From the UHGV virus genome UHGV-0115695: a stretch of 42,066 nucleotides of DNA. The stretch is one strand, 5' to 3'. A program made the position numbers and the translations under genes. This DNA is from a virus. Below are positions 5,358 through 42,062 of the stretch, piece after piece. The notes beneath the pieces were generated by a model, which saw only the letters and a list, made by a program, of their open reading frames with translations, made no database searches and was not told where the DNA came from. Position 1 is the stretch's first letter. Every line of letters begins with the position of its first letter.

Positions 5358-5607
<250 letters not shown>

Positions 5608-30916: not shown

Positions 30917-31117
30917 ATGCAACACGAACTACAACCTGATTCACTGGTTGATTTGAAATTCATCATGGCTGATACTGGCTTCGGTAAAACCTTCATCTAT
31001 GACCGGATTAAGTCCGGCGACCTGCCAAAAGCCAAAGTTATCCACGGACGAGCAAGATGGTTATATCGTGACCATTGTGAATTCAAAAATAAGCTCTTAA
31101 GCCGCGCTAATGGGTAA
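30917..31117 (+). CDS. AlpA-family excisionase / transcriptional regulator (xis-like)
   Basis: 66 aa; HTH FIMADTGFGKTFIYDRIKSGDLPKAKV; directly upstream of and co-oriented with the integrase. Confidence 0.8.
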   Translation: MQHELQPDSLVDLKFIMADTGFGKTFIYDRIKSGDLPKAKVIHGRARWLYRDHCEFKNKLLSRANG

Positions 31118-31365
31118 AATAGCGGGTAAAATATTTTTCACATCTAAAAAATACCATTCCAATCAATCCCCTGCTGCCTCAAGTAGATGTCTGCAGGGGA
31201 CACCATGAACACTTCTCACTAAGTCCAATTAATTCCATAACTCACTGTTTTAACTGATATCATCTCCTTATACTCGTCCAGCAAAGTACCATTATTTCTA
31301 ATGGAATCTATACATCTTTGCGTATAACATTGTGTATAACTGAGTTCGATCTTTTTTCTATACAC

Positions 31366-32541
31366 ATGCTGCTATCTGACATCCAAATAAAAAGAGCAAA
31401 ACCGAAGGACAAACCCTATACGCTTAACGATGGTATGGGGCTATCACTCCTGATCGACACAGCGGGCAGTAAAGGCTGGCGTTTTCGCTATCGCTTTGCA
31501 GGTAAGCCTAAGATGATTTCCTTTGGCGTATATGGCGATGTGTCGTTGGCACAGGCACGTACCAAACGTGATGAAGCGCGTTCGATGTTAGCCAAAGGGA
31601 TAAACCCAAGTGAAGCCAGAAAAGCAGATAAGATTGCTTTGCAGTTCGCGCATGAGAACAGCTTTGAGTCTGTGGCCAGAGAATGGCACTCATCGAAAAA
31701 AGCCACCTGGTCAGAGGGTTATGCAAAAGAGGTTCTCAATTGTATGGAAAAGGATATTTTTCCTTTTATCGGCCAGCGCCCAATTGAGCAGATTGAACCA
31801 TTAGAACTGCTAACCGTCCTGCAAAAAATAGAGAAAAGAGGTGCGCTAGAGCAAACCAGTAAGATCCGCCGCCGCTGTGGTGAAGTGCTTCGTTATGCTG
31901 TTGCCACTGGTAGAGCAAAGTATAATTTTGCACCCGATTTAGCTATCGCACTCAACAAACCTAAAACCCAACACTTCCCGTTCCTGACTGAAAGCGAGTT
32001 GCCCGAGTTCGTTAATGCTCTGGATAACTATCAGGGCAGTTTAGTTACCAAATACGCCACGCAGCTGTTGATGCTAACAGGCGTGCGAACAATTGAACTA
32101 CGTGCAGCGGAATGGGCTGAGTTTGATTTAGATAATGCCTTATGGGAGATCCCCAAAGAACGGATGAAGAAACGCCGCCCCCATCTGGTTCCGTTATCAA
32201 CTCAGGCGATCAATATCCTGAAAAAGCTGCAAGAAATAACAGGGAATTACAGCCTCGTTTTCCCTGGCCGAAATGACGTCAGGAAACCAATGAGCGAAGC
32301 CAGCATCAACAAAGTGATAAAACTACTGGGTTATCACGGTCGGTTAACGGGTCACGGTTTCAGGCATACCATGAGCACCATCTTGCATGAGCATGGGTTT
32401 GAAAGTGCCTGGATTGAAATGCAGCTTGCGCATGTTGATAAGAACTCTATTCGAGGTACTTACAATCATGCGCAATATATTAAAGATCGACAAGTAATGA
32501 TGGAATGGTACGCTAGCTTATTAAATACGACCTGCTATTAA
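31366..32541 (+). CDS. int: Tyrosine integrase, P4-family (arm-type N-terminal DNA-binding domain)
   Basis: N-terminus IKRAKPKDKPYTLNDGMGLSLLIDTAGSKGWRFRYRFAGKPK typical of P4/CP4-57-type integrases; C-terminal catalytic region with R...HGFRHT...Y; ATG at 31366 preferred over the upstream TTG. Confidence 0.9.
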   Translation: MLLSDIQIKRAKPKDKPYTLNDGMGLSLLIDTAGSKGWRFRYRFAGKPKMISFGVYGDVSLAQARTKRDEARSMLAKGINPSEARKADKIALQFAHENSFESVAREWHSSKKATWSEGYAKEVLNCMEKDIFPFIGQRPIEQIEPLELLTVLQKIEKRGALEQTSKIRRRCGEVLRYAVATGRAKYNFAPDLAIALNKPKTQHFPFLTESELPEFVNALDNYQGSLVTKYATQLLMLTGVRTIELRAAEWAEFDLDNALWEIPKERMKKRRPHLVPLSTQAINILKKLQEITGNYSLVFPGRNDVRKPMSEASINKVIKLLGYHGRLTGHGFRHTMSTILHEHGFESAWIEMQLAHVDKNSIRGTYNHAQYIKDRQVMMEWYASLLNTTCY

Positions 32542-33471
32542 ATCCAGCATGAAACAAATATGGTGAGTAATTTGATACTGTTTGTTTTTTGGCAACCCAG
32601 GGAAATGCCTTACAGTTGGTTGACTATTGTAATAATAATAGTTAAGACCAATGTTGCTGCCAAACTGGGTTGGATGTTGGGGAACAAGATTTGTAATTTG
32701 ATCTGAAACATCTAAAAATTTTGCAGTAACATTTGAACTTCCTCGTTGCGTGTTGCTTGATACAAAATGACGAATCCAAACTGTATTCGCTTGTAAATTC
32801 TTGAACACCAAATGTGCGGCAACAGCAGAAGGTTGACCACCTCCAAGATCTAGTACCTGGCCAGTAATTGTATAATCGCCAAATCCTAAGTAATTTTGTC
32901 CCACGAATTGATGTGCGTGCGTGAAAAGTTCCGGCCCATTATAATCAGCATTTTTTGCTAACTTTCTAAAGTTATCGCTAATAATAATTAACTTCGACAA
33001 AGGAAGAAGAGCGCACTGATTAGGAAGCATTTTATTATTTAAAACAACATGATAACTAATCAATTGATTTGTCGCCAACAACTGAATATCAGAGTTGGAT
33101 AATGATGGATTATCATATAGAAGTGCAACTCGTCTATTTAAGTTAGCATTCAACCAATTATTAATATCATTAATCGTTGTATTGGGCTGAATAAGATATC
33201 CAGAGATGATATTGTTTTTATTTGTTAATACACTTGATAAATTTTGATTTAAAGTTAAGACGTTATTGTGTGAAGAAAAATCTTCCTGATAAGGATTAAG
33301 GATAACAATTATGTCAGAATTCCAAACATTTAAACATGTTAATAAATTTCTCGTATTGACGTTAATTGGTTCTAAAATTGGTAGCAGACCATTTAGGCTA
33401 ACTCCCTTCGCAACGAGGTCCCTAAGGCATAATAACTCTGTACTTCTCGCATACAAATATGGGCTATACAT
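32521..33471 (-). CDS. Unknown protein B of low-GC two-gene cassette (316 aa)
   Basis: Long uninterrupted ORF, AT-rich codon usage distinct from flanks, 22 nt downstream of protein A; only weak motif VLDLGGGQ; no family recognised. Confidence 0.75.
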   Translation of the reverse strand: MYSPYLYARSTELLCLRDLVAKGVSLNGLLPILEPINVNTRNLLTCLNVWNSDIIVILNPYQEDFSSHNNVLTLNQNLSSVLTNKNNIISGYLIQPNTTINDINNWLNANLNRRVALLYDNPSLSNSDIQLLATNQLISYHVVLNNKMLPNQCALLPLSKLIIISDNFRKLAKNADYNGPELFTHAHQFVGQNYLGFGDYTITGQVLDLGGGQPSAVAAHLVFKNLQANTVWIRHFVSSNTQRGSSNVTAKFLDVSDQITNLVPQHPTQFGSNIGLNYYYYNSQPTVRHFPGLPKNKQYQITHHICFMLDLIAGRI

Positions 33472-33492
33472 AACTTACAACTCCTGAGGATA

Positions 33493-34374
33493 TCAACAAA
33501 TTTTAATTTTTACATCCATCAAATTCATGATGAATTCTTTTTGCTTTCTTGATAATGGTGTTGCATAACCTAAAACACGTAAACATGCTGGAAGAGAATA
33601 AATATAATCCAAAAAAACTTTGTCGTTACATCTTTTTTTCATAGCAGAGATAAAGTATTTATTTGCTATGTTTAATGGCATCTGCATGAATATCTCTTTA
33701 CAATATTCATAAACCAATCCATTAGGCATATTTATTTTAGTTGAAGTGTAATCTTCTATTATAGCTAAGAACTCTTCCTTTCTAAGAACTGAAAACAAGC
33801 TGTCACTTTTAATATAATCAATATTTGAATCTGCCTCCTTAATGACACTCAATTGATCTTTTTTATTCAAAACCATAACTCCCACTCTGGGGAGATTTAA
33901 AGCACAATATTTACTTGCATACTCTGGATGTGTAACTATATACACTTTATCAAAAACATCCAAATAATCAGGGGCTTGAGTAATCAACCTTTTTGGTGAA
34001 TCATACTCTGTCTTAATCTCGTAAGCTGTAGACGTACCATTAAACACCGCAACATCCACTATAGAGTTTTTAATTGGTAACTCTATGGACGACGAACTTG
34101 TTTTTGGGCTGTGCTTACCGAATATTATTTTATTGACAAGTGCTGTCTTATAAACATATTCATTTCTATAATTCAGACGCAAAAAATCATATAATGATGT
34201 AAATAAATCCCTTAGTGAAATCTCATGTTCATTATTATCATTGTTTGAAAACAGTGTTTCATAGCAGTAAGAATCAAAACTCCCAAATAAATCCGAAATA
34301 TCCTTACCTTTTGCTAAGGATGAAAAAATGGGGCGACGGAAAAATTTAGCATATTCCTTTTTATTATGACTCAT
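33493..34374 (-). CDS. Unknown protein A of low-GC two-gene cassette (293 aa), possible PD-(D/E)xK-like nuclease
   Basis: Long ORF, AT-rich; segment SIVDVAVFNGTSTAYEIKTE has the D...ExK spacing of restriction-endonuclease-fold catalytic cores (inference only). Confidence 0.75.
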   Translation of the reverse strand: MSHNKKEYAKFFRRPIFSSLAKGKDISDLFGSFDSYCYETLFSNNDNNEHEISLRDLFTSLYDFLRLNYRNEYVYKTALVNKIIFGKHSPKTSSSSIELPIKNSIVDVAVFNGTSTAYEIKTEYDSPKRLITQAPDYLDVFDKVYIVTHPEYASKYCALNLPRVGVMVLNKKDQLSVIKEADSNIDYIKSDSLFSVLRKEEFLAIIEDYTSTKINMPNGLVYEYCKEIFMQMPLNIANKYFISAMKKRCNDKVFLDYIYSLPACLRVLGYATPLSRKQKEFIMNLMDVKIKIC

Positions 34375-35054: not shown

Positions 35055-35327
35055 TTACCCATTCTTTTGCGCAGCCAGCAGCAACTTTAAAGCCTTTTCC
35101 CGTTCCTCGGGTGGAATTGCATCAATCAGCTCTTTAACCCTTCCCTGCCCGTTCAGCGCGCTTGGACTAACGGAATGGGAGAAAGCAACATTCATCACAA
35201 ACGAGTGACCGCACTCCACATTAGAGCAATAGCAGTACACATCGTACAGTTGTGGGTGTTTCCTGTTTGTTTTACCTATCCGTGCTACTGCCTGACATGT
35301 GGGGCAGTACATTCTCATCATCTTCAT
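35055..35327 (-). CDS. ogr: Ogr/Delta-family zinc-finger late transcription activator
   Basis: 90 aa; CPTCQ...CYCSNVECGHSF zinc-finger arrangement typical of P2 Ogr / P4 Delta. Confidence 0.8.
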   Translation of the reverse strand: MKMMRMYCPTCQAVARIGKTNRKHPQLYDVYCYCSNVECGHSFVMNVAFSHSVSPSALNGQGRVKELIDAIPPEEREKALKLLLAAQKNG

Positions 35328-35392
35328 CGTTCTGTGCCCTATACTGTTGCCCGCCAGAAGAAGGGATTTGGATCCCTACCTCTTGTTCTGAA

Positions 35393-35585
35393 CGTGTAAC
35401 ACTGGTAACACGTGTAACGCTATTGATTTAAAAGGATTTAATCTGTTACCAGTTAGCAAAATCAAGAGGTAACGCGTGGTAACACACCATTTTTTGTTAC
35501 CTCTGTTACCAGTCAGTATTTTTGACTGGTAACACTGAAGAACCGCATCAGTAACGGGTGTTACCTCTGTTACCAGTGTTACCTC
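35393..35585. repeat. Iteron array (about 12 GTTACC/GGTAAC cores in both orientations), putative satellite replication origin
   Basis: Repeated TGTTACC and its complement read directly in the sequence, immediately 3' of the primase gene; resembles P4 TGTTCACC iterons bound by alpha. Confidence 0.7.
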
Positions 35586-35609
35586 ATAAAAATAAGACTC
35601 ACGCGATAA

Positions 35610-38297
35610 TCACTCAGGTTCAGCGCTTCCCAGTACCTGTGTATTGAACTGGTACACACGTTTAAGCCCTATTTCTGGCAGGCGAATGCTGTTTTGCGTC
35701 CGGCCATCTTCACCGGGTTTCAGCCAGCCCGCGTCCACACACAACCTGGCCACCTTACGCGAGTCAAATCCCTTACAGATCTCCTTCCAGCCTGACGGGA
35801 GAACGTAGAACGTCACAACCGGCTCTGTCACGTTGTCTCCTTTATCGACTTTTCTGAATCCCATCATTGAAACAGGCCGGTTCCTGTCGTCATTCCAGTC
35901 AGCAAACCGACTGAACTGATTACGCGTCATGAAGTCCCGAACCTGTTCAAGTGCCGCTTTATCTTCCTGATTAGCTGTATGGCCCCGGTCAGCCATCCAT
36001 GCAGCCAGACAGCTTTGAGCGGCACGAAAGGCCTCTCCCTCCGGCCATCCTGTGATGCCCGCTTTTGTGGCCAGCTCCCCGGCCATCGCAACCAGAGCAA
36101 AACGGGTAACAGCCCGGCCAACCTGATTCCCGGCATTTTCCGGCGTCAGCCTTCGGGTATACTCTTTCAATAAGGCTTTCGCCTGACTGGTCAGTTCCGG
36201 CAGATCAGCGGTCAGGCAATACAGCCAGTCGCGGAATGGTGCACCATGATAATGCGCTACGTGCTGCTCAAGATGCTCAGCCAGGGTTTTCCCGCTACTG
36301 AAGCCATGAAGTTCTTCAAACACGCCATACTTGCCCGAATCGCTTGGGATCTGGATCATTCTGACCTCAACCCCGGCATACGTACGTTCCCCGGCGCTTG
36401 CCGCATGCTCTACCAGTGACAGTTCCCCGGTAGACAGAAACAACAGATTCCAGCGGTTGGTTTCCCTTACCGAACCATCTGTTCTGGCTCTGGCTTTGCC
36501 CTGCCCGTTAGCCAGCATATAAGCGATATTCCCCGCCTCCCTGCCGTCAACCTCCCGGATTTCATCCAGCATCAGCGTGGCATCATTGCGGCGGCTCGCC
36601 GTTCCTTCTAAGGCATTCCCCGTCGCCCGCCACGTATGCCAGAAATCTGTTCCACCACATACTGATGCAGCCACTTTCATCGTCGTGGTTTTACCGTCTG
36701 TGGATTCCCCTTTGAGGTGATAACCTCCACCGCCGATACCAACCAGTTTCAGAAGGGGGGCAGCAAATGCCAGACTCACCGCAAAGGCAAGACGGGCATT
36801 CTTTATGCAATAACGGCCTATATTTTCACGCCAGCCCTCTGATGTGCCGCTGACACGAAAATCACGCCCCTGCACACTCGATGTTTGTAAGATGACTGAC
36901 TGGGCTTCGCGCCCTATCACTTCATCCTGGAGAACGTAAACCCCGCCGTGCCAGCCAGTTTTATTCACACAGGTTACTTTTCTGTCCGGTTTACACAGCG
37001 AGATATATTCCATCAGGAATGCTCTGGCCATGCCATTAATGTTGATGTAAGAAAGCCCGTTAACCAGCAGAACGCGGCGCAGTTCTTCCCCGCTACCGCC
37101 CAGCATCTCCATCGGCATTGCCCATTTACGGCTGTTTCCGTTGGTATCTTCCCATTCCAGCAAACGCCCGTAATTACTTCCATCAGCATCACTGGTGATT
37201 GCCGTCACCCGCAACGGACTGCAAATTTTGATATTACGTATCTCTGTATCACCATCAGACTTATTAACCAGCTTGTCGTACCACAAATATTCTTTTGTCA
37301 GCCGGAACCCTTCTGGTAAACGGGTCTGCCCTTTGCCATGCAGCGTCATTTCTTCACGAAAGGCATCTCTCGCCCGTTCTTTCCCCACTTCCTGCCGATA
37401 ATCATCCCAGTCAGCCTTATGGCGTACCGGAGGGAGCGTTACCCAGCCATCCACCGCTTTGGCGGCTTTCTCTGCCTGAATACGCCCGGTGTTTTCTTTG
37501 CCGTCAGCCAGATCATTATCTCCGGCCAGAATGATCCGAGTTTCCGGCCAGCGTTTTCGGATCTGCTCCGTCACCTTCAGTAAATTGGTGGCAGCGACAG
37601 CCGCCACGATCCATCCTTCAGTCAGCAGACTGACGGTAAGCGCCGTGGCAAAACCCTCAGTGATAATCACCTGTTCAGGTGTTTCAGCGGGTATATCGGT
37701 CAGGGCAATGAATGCGCCAGACAGCTGGCTACCGGGCAGCAGACTTTTATCCCCGTCAGGATTGATAAGCTGGCCACCAGTAATATTCCCGGAAATATCC
37801 GTCAAAGGCAGCAGTAATGAACCGGTGGAAAATGTTATTCCGGCCAGATTCAAAGGCTGTGACAGCAAGGGAAGTGAATACCCGTGTAAGCCCTTATTTG
37901 TCAGATAGACCGGCTCACCATTGCAGGACTGCTGTCTGAGTCTGGTATATCGCTCCGCGCCCGCTTCTTTTCCTGCGGCCTTTTTCCTGGCTGGCAATGC
38001 GGGCTTCTCCTGTATTTCTGGTAATGCAAGCGCCTCAGATACCATCCCGGCGACTTCTTTTATCTTTCTTCCTGTCACCAGACGAACCAGATCAAGACCA
38101 TCGCCATGACCGCACTGATTACAAAACCACGTCCCTCGCCCCGCTTTATCGTCCAGTCGAAAACGATCTTTTCCACCACAGGCAGGGCAAGCCCCATGAT
38201 GTCCTGCGGACGGTACTTTAATACCTAATGCTGACAGGATATAAGGCCAGCGCCCAATTGCAGCTCCGGAAATCGTGGATACAGACGGTGTTTTCAC
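35610..38297 (-). CDS. Primase-helicase, P4 alpha family
   Basis: 895 aa; N-terminal zinc ribbon CPACGGKDRF...CNQCGHG, Toprim-like ITEGFATALTV, C-terminal helicase with Walker A GESTDGKTT. Confidence 0.9.
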   Translation of the reverse strand: MKTPSVSTISGAAIGRWPYILSALGIKVPSAGHHGACPACGGKDRFRLDDKAGRGTWFCNQCGHGDGLDLVRLVTGRKIKEVAGMVSEALALPEIQEKPALPARKKAAGKEAGAERYTRLRQQSCNGEPVYLTNKGLHGYSLPLLSQPLNLAGITFSTGSLLLPLTDISGNITGGQLINPDGDKSLLPGSQLSGAFIALTDIPAETPEQVIITEGFATALTVSLLTEGWIVAAVAATNLLKVTEQIRKRWPETRIILAGDNDLADGKENTGRIQAEKAAKAVDGWVTLPPVRHKADWDDYRQEVGKERARDAFREEMTLHGKGQTRLPEGFRLTKEYLWYDKLVNKSDGDTEIRNIKICSPLRVTAITSDADGSNYGRLLEWEDTNGNSRKWAMPMEMLGGSGEELRRVLLVNGLSYININGMARAFLMEYISLCKPDRKVTCVNKTGWHGGVYVLQDEVIGREAQSVILQTSSVQGRDFRVSGTSEGWRENIGRYCIKNARLAFAVSLAFAAPLLKLVGIGGGGYHLKGESTDGKTTTMKVAASVCGGTDFWHTWRATGNALEGTASRRNDATLMLDEIREVDGREAGNIAYMLANGQGKARARTDGSVRETNRWNLLFLSTGELSLVEHAASAGERTYAGVEVRMIQIPSDSGKYGVFEELHGFSSGKTLAEHLEQHVAHYHGAPFRDWLYCLTADLPELTSQAKALLKEYTRRLTPENAGNQVGRAVTRFALVAMAGELATKAGITGWPEGEAFRAAQSCLAAWMADRGHTANQEDKAALEQVRDFMTRNQFSRFADWNDDRNRPVSMMGFRKVDKGDNVTEPVVTFYVLPSGWKEICKGFDSRKVARLCVDAGWLKPGEDGRTQNSIRLPEIGLKRVYQFNTQVLGSAEPE

Positions 38298-38704: not shown

Positions 38705-38933
38705 CGCGCATCACTCCCTTAATTGTGCTGGTTTCCTTAACAACGCCATCCAGTTGTTCGGCAATACAGGCCACTAAAGCCGCAGCGCCTTCCGCTGAAA
38801 CAGTTCTCGCTCCATTCACTGTGGGCACGGACAAGACCTCTGCAAGAAACTCACTGGCCAGTGCCGCCCGTAACAGACGACTCTCCCCCTGTTCACTCAA
38901 TATGCAGCCTTGCTTAAAATTCATGGATTTCAT
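38697..38933 (-). CDS. Hypothetical satellite protein
   Basis: 78 aa; overlapping coupled ORF upstream of the 136-aa gene. Confidence 0.45.
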   Translation of the reverse strand: MKSMNFKQGCILSEQGESRLLRAALASEFLAEVLSVPTVNGARTVSAEGAAALVACIAEQLDGVVKETSTIKGVMRDE

Positions 38934-39133
38934 GCAACCACCTCCCCGGCTCTTTTCACAGGGATACGGGCAGCAAAGCTCAGGATAAATTCAGTGGCAA
39001 GTTTAAGGCGTGCAGCATGCTCGCATTCTGCGATTACACGCACAGGGCGTGGACGGGCATCACGGTCTGTACGGCGGACAGCCAGAAAGACAAAGGTAAA
39101 TTCAGGGTGAGATAAAGCAGGGACTGTAGCCAT
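38930..39133 (-). CDS. Hypothetical small basic protein (internal start of the 196-aa track ORF)
   Basis: 67 aa from MATVPALSHPEF...; GAAGGAGG RBS 8 nt upstream; the long N-terminal extension crosses an apparent promoter region and is rejected. Confidence 0.45.
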   Translation of the reverse strand: MATVPALSHPEFTFVFLAVRRTDRDARPRPVRVIAECEHAARLKLATEFILSFAARIPVKRAGEVVA

Positions 39134-39607
39134 AATGGCAACCTCCTTCAGATAGCGGGTAACGCTACCACCGGAGTTCCTACGCTCATGGGTGGTAGCC
39201 CAGACGGGGGTAGGAATACCGGCTCTGAAGGATACCGGCCAGCCCGAAAGCTGCCCCGCCTGGACTACCATAATTCTGATGATGTGGCGTAAAAAATAAA
39301 AAAATACAATCAGCCACCACACCATAAATTTTAGGTGAGTCAAAGCTGCGACACAAAAAAACACGCCTGGCGCGTGTAGTATCGCCTTCAGATAACACGG
39401 GTTCCTACGCCCGGCTGCCGATTTTGCGGCAACCTTTAAACTATATCCCGCGCATTCCTGGTGAGGCAAGAAATTTATAACCGAAAACTGATCATTGCCT
39501 GGATTAATTAACGCTGGCATGCTTAAGCCTCTGCTTAAAAATAGTTCTTCATTTTTCCTGATGCTGTAAACGAGACCCGCCTCTGAGCGGGTCTTTCTGT
39601 CGCTAAG

Positions 39608-40612
39608 TCAATCCGCAAACGTCAGGGCGCTCTCATCGACAGCCGCGTACAGTTCAGGTTCACCGAGTGCATAACCTTCATTGCGCAGGTAGGAATGCAC
39701 GTATTCACTGCTTTCATCATCAAACTCAGCACGAAACCAGCGTGTTATCGCCTGAGTGTAAATATGCAGATTATCCAGCGTCGTTACTGCCAGACGCTTA
39801 CCCGGCATAAACGGGGGAATAAACGCAAAGCGGCCAGCAACAGAACTTGTAGCCATCTGTGCCGCATTCACATCAGACGGGCGGTCTGCGGCATTAAATA
39901 ACTTCAGGCGTTGATGTGCTGCCAGCTCTGCCCCAACCAGTACAACCAGACGAGGATCTTCACGAAACTGCTCAGCAATAAGCTCTGTAATCAGATGGTT
40001 GGCCAGAGCATCAATATTTTTCCAGGTGCCAGTCTCTCCCAGAGTGACAGGCTCAGAGATGATTTGCTTTCCGTTCCCGTAGGCTTTCGCCAGTGCATGC
40101 CAGCCAATATTGACATCCTCGCCTTTTTTATTGATTTCCGGGTTTGTAGTATTTGCAATCGACACACCATTGAAACCGACCCGCAGCATGTCCAGCGCAT
40201 ATGCCTGGGCAAAAAAGCTCTCAACCGTTTTCTCAAACTCATCCGGCACGCCGGTATGGTAAATATGAGACATATCGGAATAGCTGATCCGGGCGCAGGT
40301 ATCCGTCTCTGTCAGAAAGAACTCCGTACCATTGATTGCCATTTTTTTGTGGAAACGGCCACCATCCACACGTCCGGTATACAGTTCACTGGCACCAATA
40401 TTGACGGCATTACCTGACACGGCGTTAACATCACGTAGGGTAATATTTTTAATAAGCCACCCGGATTCCAGAATTGAGGTACGCAGTATATTTTCAGTAG
40501 GTTCGCTTAATGCAAAGCGTCTGTTTGATTCTTCCTGATAGTTAGTGCCAGTGACGAATTTATTATGATAACGACGTGCTGCGTCCGGCCTTTCAGTTTT
40601 GAAGGCATACAT
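39608..40612 (-). CDS. Putative major capsid protein, P2 gpN-like (recalled similarity; unverified)
   Basis: 334 aa; segments GFNGV...GW, DALANHLITELIAEQFREDPRLVVLVGAELAA and TTLDNLHIY resemble what I recall of P2 gpN. Confidence 0.5.
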   Translation of the reverse strand: MYAFKTERPDAARRYHNKFVTGTNYQEESNRRFALSEPTENILRTSILESGWLIKNITLRDVNAVSGNAVNIGASELYTGRVDGGRFHKKMAINGTEFFLTETDTCARISYSDMSHIYHTGVPDEFEKTVESFFAQAYALDMLRVGFNGVSIANTTNPEINKKGEDVNIGWHALAKAYGNGKQIISEPVTLGETGTWKNIDALANHLITELIAEQFREDPRLVVLVGAELAAHQRLKLFNAADRPSDVNAAQMATSSVAGRFAFIPPFMPGKRLAVTTLDNLHIYTQAITRWFRAEFDDESSEYVHSYLRNEGYALGEPELYAAVDESALTFAD

Positions 40613-40634
40613 AGTTTTTCACCTTTTTAAGTAT

Positions 40635-41495
40635 TTAAGAAAAGATTTTATTTTTGTACTCAGTAACCAGATTGTATTTCATTACATGCTCAACATAATC
40701 CCGGTCACTTACGACTGAACGTAATACATAATTATCTGCTCGATAGTACTCCCTGTAAGCCATAGCTCTTGCCATTCCACCGTTATTTAATACATAACGA
40801 TCAGTTGGAACGCTACAACGACTAATAATTTCACTCACGGAATCAGATAAAGACTTGAGTGCATCAGTAATAAATTTAATATCACGGACAACGTCACTGT
40901 CATTAAATACAGAAATAAAATCAGCAGGGATCTGGCCGGATTGAGGAAATATATTCAGTAAACGCTTATCGATTCCCTTCCCAATGTAGTTTCCTTCATC
41001 GGCCAGTACTCCCGGCAAAAGCTTGATCGTGCTCAATCGACTATGTTGTTCATTCAACCGGGAAACAGCCAGATGGTAATACCGTTCAGCATCCGCTCGT
41101 TCAGCATGCCCCATTTTATTCGTTTTGGCTTCAGCAATGCTACTGACGCCGTTTTTTGAGAATGTGCTTTTCCATGCAACTTCCGCATTTGTCACTTCAC
41201 GCTGCCGGAAAGATAACTCTTCCTCTTCCTGACGACACAACTGGGCATAACGGCTCAGGAGCAGGTTGATCTCATTCGCCACAGTTTCCGTATCAGGTAC
41301 TGTTAACCCCGTAAGTGAATACAGCTTTTCACCTTTAGCTCGCAGCTTATTCAGTGAATATATTTCAATAATACGCACAATACAGGCCGTGTCGCTATGA
41401 GTCTCTTTAAATGATCTTACTTTGTAACTATCTAACACCGACACATGTTCGTTCTTAATTGATGCCAATTTCTTCTTAAAAACATTGTCAACCAT
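40635..41495 (-). CDS. Hypothetical protein, possibly capsid scaffold-like by position and size
   Basis: 286 aa, immediately upstream of the gpN-like gene (P2 gpO is about the same size and precedes N); AT-rich; no motif recognised. Confidence 0.35.
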   Translation of the reverse strand: MVDNVFKKKLASIKNEHVSVLDSYKVRSFKETHSDTACIVRIIEIYSLNKLRAKGEKLYSLTGLTVPDTETVANEINLLLSRYAQLCRQEEEELSFRQREVTNAEVAWKSTFSKNGVSSIAEAKTNKMGHAERADAERYYHLAVSRLNEQHSRLSTIKLLPGVLADEGNYIGKGIDKRLLNIFPQSGQIPADFISVFNDSDVVRDIKFITDALKSLSDSVSEIISRCSVPTDRYVLNNGGMARAMAYREYYRADNYVLRSVVSDRDYVEHVMKYNLVTEYKNKIFS

Positions 41496-42012: not shown

Positions 42013-42062
42013 GGGGCTGGGCTGGGCTGGGCTGGGCTGGGCTGGGCTGGGCTGGGCTGGGG
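42013..42062. repeat. Hexanucleotide microsatellite, about 8 copies of GGGCTG
   Basis: Perfect period-6 array at the window edge. Confidence 0.95.

Follow-up and report, generated by a model that had tools for sequence, protein, structure and literature searches.

We analysed a 42,066-nucleotide stretch of DNA (hereafter the window) that is part of an E. coli chromosome. The segment was found at 100% identity in several complete genomes, and the unit made up of the primase gene, the iteron array and ogr was present in 453 of 5426 complete genomes. Searched as DNA against 50,697 phage records, the region gave no match; the element resides in the chromosome and resembles a satellite, and is not a catalogued phage. 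Positions 1 to ~31100 are occupied by a lambdoid/P22-like prophage and positions 31318 to ~41800 by a satellite-like island of ~10 kb. The island begins with a tyrosine integrase gene (31318-32541, plus strand), which is followed by the sce7725/sce7726 genes, ogr, the array, the primase-helicase gene, two small ORFs, an Ash/Icd-like gene, a capsid gene, a 286-aa ORF and AlpA. The integrase was assigned to the island because in relatives the genes follow the same order and the integrase occupies the same end. The backbone of the island is P4-like in its regulatory genes.

Several features of the island were recorded alongside the replication genes. The Ash/Icd-like ORF (38930-39520) is overlapped by Rfam matches at 39188-39446 on the minus strand, namely to the C4 antisense RNA (81 bits) and isrK (69.5 bits), with the c4-a1b1 target at 43.8 bits, just below its gathering score of 46.7; these sequence matches suggest that the island carries an RNA immunity module of the P4/P1 type. 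The minus-strand stretch 39608-41495 holds a P2-family major capsid gene of full length (Pfam E 1e-66), with the 286-aa ORF ahead of it; that ORF gave no family match. The satellite has neither sid nor psu, and it may build its own small capsid instead of remodelling that of a helper; relatives with a second type of backbone have two Psu-like genes (L045, 9074-10365). The sce7725/sce7726 pair (32521-34374, minus strand) lies between ogr and the integrase gene, in the position of a P4-like variable hotspot, and the same pair was found at the same place in Morganella and Pantoea elements (L029, 9789-11558; L043, 9852-11651). Within 30917-31318, the last prophage gene is torI (excisionase-like), which lies 200 bp ahead of the satellite integrase gene, with no prophage integrase between; the two elements may result from tandem integration at one site or may share recombination functions. 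No tRNA genes are present in the window. A perfect tandem repeat, (GGGCTG) x8, occupies 42013-42061, at the window's right edge and just past the AlpA end of the island. In the prophage part, the 7-mer CTGGCTC occurs in 9 copies within 55 bp (5406-5460), probably as a short tandem repeat in a coding region.

The primase-helicase-initiator gene (35610-38297, minus strand) encodes 895 aa, with Pfam matches to a primase Zn-ribbon, Toprim and DUF927. Its domains are a Zn-ribbon at aa 33-68, Toprim at aa 210-307, a DUF927 MCM-like helicase at aa 331-614, and a helical bundle plus winged helix at aa ~690-895. On the other side of the array, the Ogr/Delta-like zinc-finger gene (35055-35327, minus strand; Pfam PF04606, E 5e-14) is a neighbour that lies outside the replicon module. 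The array is thus flanked by the primase stop codon (35610-35612, minus strand) and the ogr start, which agrees with the original prediction that it lies between the primase and Ogr genes.

A symmetric iteron array 3' of the primase gene

The hexamer GGTAAC occurs 32 times on the two strands of the window, against 10.9 +/- 3.5 copies in shuffled sequences, and 10 of the 32 copies fall in 35404-35583. Relative to the GGTAAC rate outside the array, 0.106 exact hexamers were expected in the 201 bp of the array and 10 were observed (Poisson P(>=10) = 4e-17). Likewise, 9 of the 12 window copies of the 7-mer TGTTACC/GGTAACA lie inside the array. When 1-2 mismatches were allowed, three degenerate sites were added to the ten exact GGTAAC/GTTACC copies, to give 13 sites in 35395-35583: two near-matches, TGTAACA (35395-35401) and TGTAACG (35413-35419), and a weak site, AGTAACG (35550-35556). 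GGTAACG (35468-35474) is a variant of the 7-mer that is counted among the ten exact hexamers. By quality, there are 12 good sites and one weak site. The original prediction of a dense GTTACC/GGTAAC array at 35393-35585, with about a dozen copies in both orientations within 200 bp, was thus confirmed, and its coordinates are accurate.

The repeat has a 7-bp core within a 9-bp unit, occurs in both orientations, and steps by 9-10 bp between tandem neighbours. With R for GGTAACA and L for TGTTACC, the sites on the plus strand read R R R L R R : L L R (r) L L L, where the colon stands for the axis of symmetry at 35489, within CACCATTTTT, and the 12 good sites form six mirror pairs about this axis. 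The array as a whole (35395-35583) begins on the ogr side with a triple in 9-bp tandem, TGTAACA, GGTAACA and TGTAACG (35395-35419, plus strand; starts at 35395, 35404 and 35413), which is mirrored by the primase-proximal triple of three TGTTACC copies, also in 9-bp tandem (35559-35583, plus strand; starts at 35559, 35568 and 35577). Further in, a single TGTTACC (35444-35450, plus strand) mirrors a single GGTAACA (35528-35534, plus strand). The inner pair GGTAACG and GGTAACA (35468-35484, plus strand; starts at 35468 and 35478, 10-bp step) is mirrored by two TGTTACC copies (35495-35510, plus strand; starts at 35495 and 35504, 9-bp step), and between the inner pairs lies the dyad centre CACCATTTTT (35485-35494), which contains a T tract.

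Two further elements accompany the sites. The A/T-rich spacer CTATTGATTTAAAAGGATTTAATC (35420-35443) carries on the gene strand a TTTWWATCAA box, which in alignments is kept in most relatives; the spacer is a candidate unwinding element or host-factor site. This spacer is the largest A/T-rich stretch and is off-centre, and the dyad centre itself amounts to just 10 bp of T-rich sequence. The gene strand also carries a T-rich box, GTCTTATTTTTATGA (35584-35598, minus strand), which separates the primase stop codon from the first iteron and is kept in all iteron classes described below. Because it is conserved through all of these classes, the box would not be read by the variable winged helix, and we regard it as a putative flanking unwinding or priming element.

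Two binding sites for known proteins were considered and rejected. P2 late promoters carry TGT-N12-ACA near -55, and one such match lies at 35384-35401, where it overlaps the outermost iteron; as an Ogr/Delta operator it was dropped, since it is kept in neither L021 nor L010 and since TGT-N12-ACA is expected fairly often when every iteron contains TGT. The IHF consensus is WATCAANNNNTTR, and a conserved ATCAA-N4-GTT box was dropped as an IHF site because it misses the TTR of the consensus by one position; we keep it as an A/T-rich box with no assignment.

Conservation of the array and co-variation with the winged helix

Using a profile of 16 homologues, we retrieved 55 loci from one-genome-per-species contigs, with 60-93% protein identity. 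All are from Enterobacterales except one record labelled Vagococcus. Every locus with an intact 3' end (~50) carries an array of about 9-13 sites. In 47 of the ~50 intact relatives, the array begins 20-35 nt past the stop codon, and these 47 share the orientation order +++ − ++ −− + −−−, with sites typically ~27/36/45, 76, 100/109, 126/136, 160 and 191/200/209 nt past the stop; in the window, the first site lies 26 nt past it. In L035, a terminator-like hairpin comes first and the array starts ~90 nt past the stop. In L038, L044 and L055, an inserted integrase-like gene shifts the array to 1.15 kb downstream. This insert, at 8664-9671 in L038, encodes a 335-aa tyrosine-recombinase-like protein between the primase stop and the array, and the iteron at these three loci is GGGAACA.

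Two loci, L047 and L049, encode Rep-only proteins without a primase domain, and the array still directly follows the gene. These proteins (L047 6001-7695; L049 5650-7335) are ~700 aa long, lack the Zn-ribbon and Toprim, have an unrelated N-terminus of ~130 aa and are followed by a 12-site array. In addition, the primase-array unit is carried by two backbones, one with a capsid gene upstream and ogr downstream, as in the window, and the other with Psu-like genes downstream, as in Shigella locus L045; in relatives with the second backbone, ogr is absent downstream of the array. Since the Rep-only loci and the second backbone keep the array, it belongs to the helicase-winged-helix module and not to ogr. 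The suggestion in the original prediction that the placement of the array could couple replication to late gene control found no support in this comparison, because the array follows the helicase module whether its neighbours are ogr, Psu-like or integrase-like genes.

The iterons of the relatives fall into eight classes: GGTAACA, GGGTAACA, GGTGTAACA, GGTGGAACA, GGATACA, GGTTACA, GGGAACA and TACATGTA, the last of which is palindromic. The GGTAACA class (class A) comprises the window and about 20 other loci. Among 20 distinct class-A arrays, the majority frequency was 0.95 in iteron columns versus 0.68 in spacers, and we list this apparent selection on the iteron sites among the support for an origin. 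Three genomes hold two elements of the same family each, and the iteron classes differ each time (C/B, B/A and A/C). Two of these elements, L026 and L053, share one Pantoea stewartii chromosome and have primases that are ~90% identical; the other double carriers are Pantoea leporis (L042 and L043) and Enterobacter intestinihominis (L004 and L050). Different classes in co-resident elements are consistent with selection for orthogonal replicons, although three cases are not significant.

The protein itself has a composite origin. Its aa 1-317 (Zn-ribbon and Toprim primase) are 39% identical to the primase domain of P4 alpha, and no alignment with alpha was obtained beyond aa 317. By sequence, aa 418-648 match the helicases of SaPIbov1 Rep (8tch) and SCCmec Cch (5dgk). 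A structural model of the C-terminus (pLDDT 86.9) matches SaPIbov1 Rep, Cch and a wHTH-DNA complex; the C-terminal profile compared with the alpha C-terminus by hhalign gave a probability of 0.5%, that is, no similarity. In the model, aa 846-856 form the second helix of the winged helix, and aa 869-873 and 877-884 form its beta-hairpin wing. Because the alpha match is limited to aa 1-317, the helicase matches SaPI Rep and Cch, and the C-terminus is unlike that of alpha, the protein, as judged from these alignments and the predicted fold, is an alpha-type primase fused to a SaPI-Rep/Cch-type helicase with a C-terminal winged helix.

Some primases that are 95-98% identical are nevertheless followed by different iterons (L008/L021, L017/L019, L010/L014 and L008/L009), and the differences that accompany a switch of class include aa 846/850, in the predicted recognition helix, and 866, 867, 870, 878 and 880, in the predicted beta-hairpin wing. 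L008 (GGTTACA) and L021 (GGTAACA) differ at 16 positions, including G864D, S865T, S870N and W880R; L017 (GGTGTAACA) and L019 (GGGTAACA) differ at 22, including A846T, T867P and V883I; and L010 (GGTAACA) and L014 (GGTGTAACA) differ at 31, including S846P, A850S, R866K and S870T. The differences between L008 and L009 (GGATACA) include S865G, K869R, S870Y, I871V and V878A, and class B (GGTGTAACA) is distinguished from class C (GGTGGAACA) by T870S and P878V. Differences in aa 864-884 amounted to 15/183 in class-switch pairs versus 13/848 in same-class pairs of similar divergence (Fisher P 1.4e-5, for pairs that are not fully independent and five switches that are partly related). Such co-variation, which is comparative and indirect, is the pattern expected if the modelled winged helix reads the iterons.

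The array as a probable satellite replication origin

The helicase and DNA-binding parts of the protein resemble SaPI Rep and Cch, so the appropriate model for the array is a SaPI/PICI origin, such as those of SaPIbov1, SaPI1 and SaPI5, and not P4 ori. SaPI Reps are initiators whose C-terminal winged helix recognises penta- or hexanucleotide iterons, and for which two self-loaded hexamers have been proposed (PMC9371898). The SaPI ori consists of 6-12 iterons immediately downstream of the rep ORF, with an AT-rich region near the centre and iterons of opposite direction on each side, and SaPI5 has a fused Pri-Rep, PriRep5 (PMC9371898). The element described here shares with these the status of a phage satellite, an array immediately 3' of the initiator-helicase ORF, and short iterons, 12 of them compared with 6-12 in SaPIs and with a 7-bp core where 5-8 bp would be looked for. 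It also shares opposed iteron sets with A/T-rich DNA between them, although the match to an A/T-rich core is looser; a Rep/Cch-type DUF927/MCM-like helicase, the type expected to load itself as a hexamer, with a C-terminal winged helix; and an apparent match of iteron sequence to initiator specificity, in that the eight classes co-vary with winged-helix residues. As in PriRep5, a primase is fused to the Rep. The element differs in its backbone, which is Gram-negative and P4-like and includes Ogr/Delta, AlpA, C4-type RNA and an Ash/Icd-like gene; in its primase domain, which is of the P4-alpha type; and in its array, where 7-9-bp iterons at tandem steps of 9-10 bp make up a strict dyad of six pairs. 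In Gram-negative PICIs, the ori is likewise the region immediately 3' of the replication gene, and EcCICFT073's pri-rep-ori segment drives plasmid maintenance (PMC6092414). In the CFT073 sequence, we found that short iterons of the GGTAGAC type follow the gene directly in the EcCICFT073 ori and run in both orientations. However, the primase of this experimentally tested E. coli PICI (584 aa) has no homology to the 895-aa primase described here and its iteron differs, so EcCICFT073 offers an analogy of layout only.

SV40 and papillomavirus core origins also have short dyad sites flanked by A/T-rich DNA, with inverted pentanucleotide repeats on which large T antigen and E1 form double hexamers, and here too a self-loading initiator-helicase would be expected to assemble as a pair of hexamers in opposite orientation. 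The analogy extends only to mechanism: neither the DNA-binding domain nor the helicase clade is related, those origins have 4 sites versus 12, and we claim no homology. Iteron plasmids (pSC101, R6K, P1 and RK2) resemble the locus in that initiator-binding repeats adjoin the initiator gene, and the specificity classes recall incompatibility groups. Their repeats, in contrast, are 17-22 bp long and mostly direct, and their non-helicase Rep recruits DnaA and DnaB. The locus does not have the form of a RepA-type plasmid origin, as its sites are 7-9 bp and arranged as a dyad, and its initiator carries a helicase.

Among characterised satellites, P4 is to our knowledge the only one that has an alpha-type primase. 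The original prediction took the array for the likely cognate origin of the primase on the grounds that P4 alpha binds iterons at ori and crr. Conserved position and architecture, co-varying iterons and initiator homology favour the first part of this proposal; the P4 rationale holds for the primase domain (39% identical) and for the position of the array and fails for the rest, since no relationship to alpha could be detected in the helicase and origin-binding domains. According to the annotation of P4 (GenBank X51522), the cluster directly 3' of the alpha gene is crr, whereas ori is 4.5 kb away; by analogy, this counts against reading the present array as an origin, because the P4 array at the same position is an auxiliary cis element and not a start site. 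The array might be imagined as a crr-like element that is bound by the primase-helicase and acts, by enhancement or looping, on an initiation site elsewhere, as in P4. Its position matches that of crr, the N-terminal primase domain is alpha-like, and the 8-bp crr iterons TGTTCACC, which occur in both orientations, some 9 bp apart, look similar to the cores TGTTACC, TGTTACACC and TGTTCCACC; P4 is likewise a satellite with an RNA immunity region. We nevertheless consider this role unlikely. P4 needs two separated clusters (ori and crr) and has type II repeats, whereas a scan that finds both P4 clusters showed the iteron clustered nowhere else in the island or in the rest of the window, and the relatives too have a single cluster; a P4-like bipartite origin was dropped on this ground. 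The type I iteron TGTTCACC itself is absent from the locus (core TGTTACC) and from relatives, which have TGTTACACC, TGTTCCACC and others, and crr consists of two 120-bp direct repeats in place of the one dyad seen here. Furthermore, the helicase and DNA-binding parts are SaPI-Rep-like, and in SaPIs the 3' array is the ori itself (PMC9371898).

The arrangement of the transcription units raised another possibility. On the gene strand, neither a sigma-70-like promoter nor an intrinsic terminator was detected between the primase gene and ogr, so ogr may be read through from the primase operon, probably across 12 predicted protein-binding sites. Plasmid iterons often have a second role in control. 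The array could then be mainly a regulatory operator or copy-control element, in which Rep on the iterons gates read-through from the primase gene into ogr or handcuffs copies, coupling replication to late genes. We think this improbable as the main function, because the array stays with the helicase module where a gene other than ogr comes next, as with the Psu-like genes of L045 and the integrase-like gene between primase and array in L038, and because in L035 the array is preceded by a terminator-like hairpin and ogr is missing; an operator role could come on top of origin function without taking its place. Least probable of all, and hardly credible to us, is that the repeats are kept as a structured RNA (a 3' UTR or intergenic part of a primase-ogr transcript) or a DNA cruciform instead of protein sites. 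The gene-strand RNA does fold strongly (-73.7 kcal/mol, z -6.4), and mirror-paired sites stay complementary across iteron classes; since concerted iteron change mimics compensatory change, structure-based roles keep a small probability. Yet the strong fold follows from the inverted iterons, which makes its z-score trivial. Complementarity ends at the iteron edges, the spacers being neither conserved nor complementary, and tandem direct copies, which cannot pair with each other, are homogenised as well. The hairpin of L035 and the gene inserted in L038, L044 and L055 separate primase gene and array, iteron changes track residue changes in the DNA-binding fold, and no Rfam match was found in 35300-35700 at E <= 1; the RNA reading was dropped. 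The crr-like, regulatory and RNA or cruciform roles are all less likely than an origin.

Taken together, the enrichment and symmetry of the array, its 3' position, the conservation of its sites, the eight specificity classes, the protein co-variation, the fold, the literature and the tracking of the array with the helicase-CTD module lead us to conclude that the array is very likely the replication origin of a ~10-kb P4-like, probably P2-dependent satellite in the E. coli chromosome, read by the adjacent primase-helicase. We infer binding, double-hexamer loading, melting and origin firing as follows: the winged helix would read the 7-9-bp iterons; two hexamers would load in opposite orientation, as the grouping of the 12 sites into six mirror pairs about a T-rich centre suggests; the A/T-rich spacers and flanks would melt; and the N-terminal primase would prime bidirectional theta replication after satellite induction. 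More speculatively, and with considerable doubt, the array might be a reprogrammable loading platform for two hexamers, in which 2-5 substitutions (wing positions 866, 867, 870, 878 and 880; helix positions 846 and 850) switch all 12 sites and so yield mutually orthogonal replicons that share one cell; Rep occupancy might also gate read-through into Ogr/Delta, timing helper late-gene activation to satellite replication.

An origin of the SaPI/PICI type is of an already known kind and reveals no new principle. The proposed assignment would place the origin of a common E. coli satellite and would indicate that a SaPI-type initiator in fusion with an alpha-type primase can serve P4-like satellites, thereby tying the replication module of Gram-positive PICIs to that of Gram-negative P4-like elements. 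With a few candidate specificity residues, the eight iteron classes would form a compact and testable system for the evolution of initiator-origin specificity, and may be of use for orthogonal small replicons or satellite-based delivery vectors.
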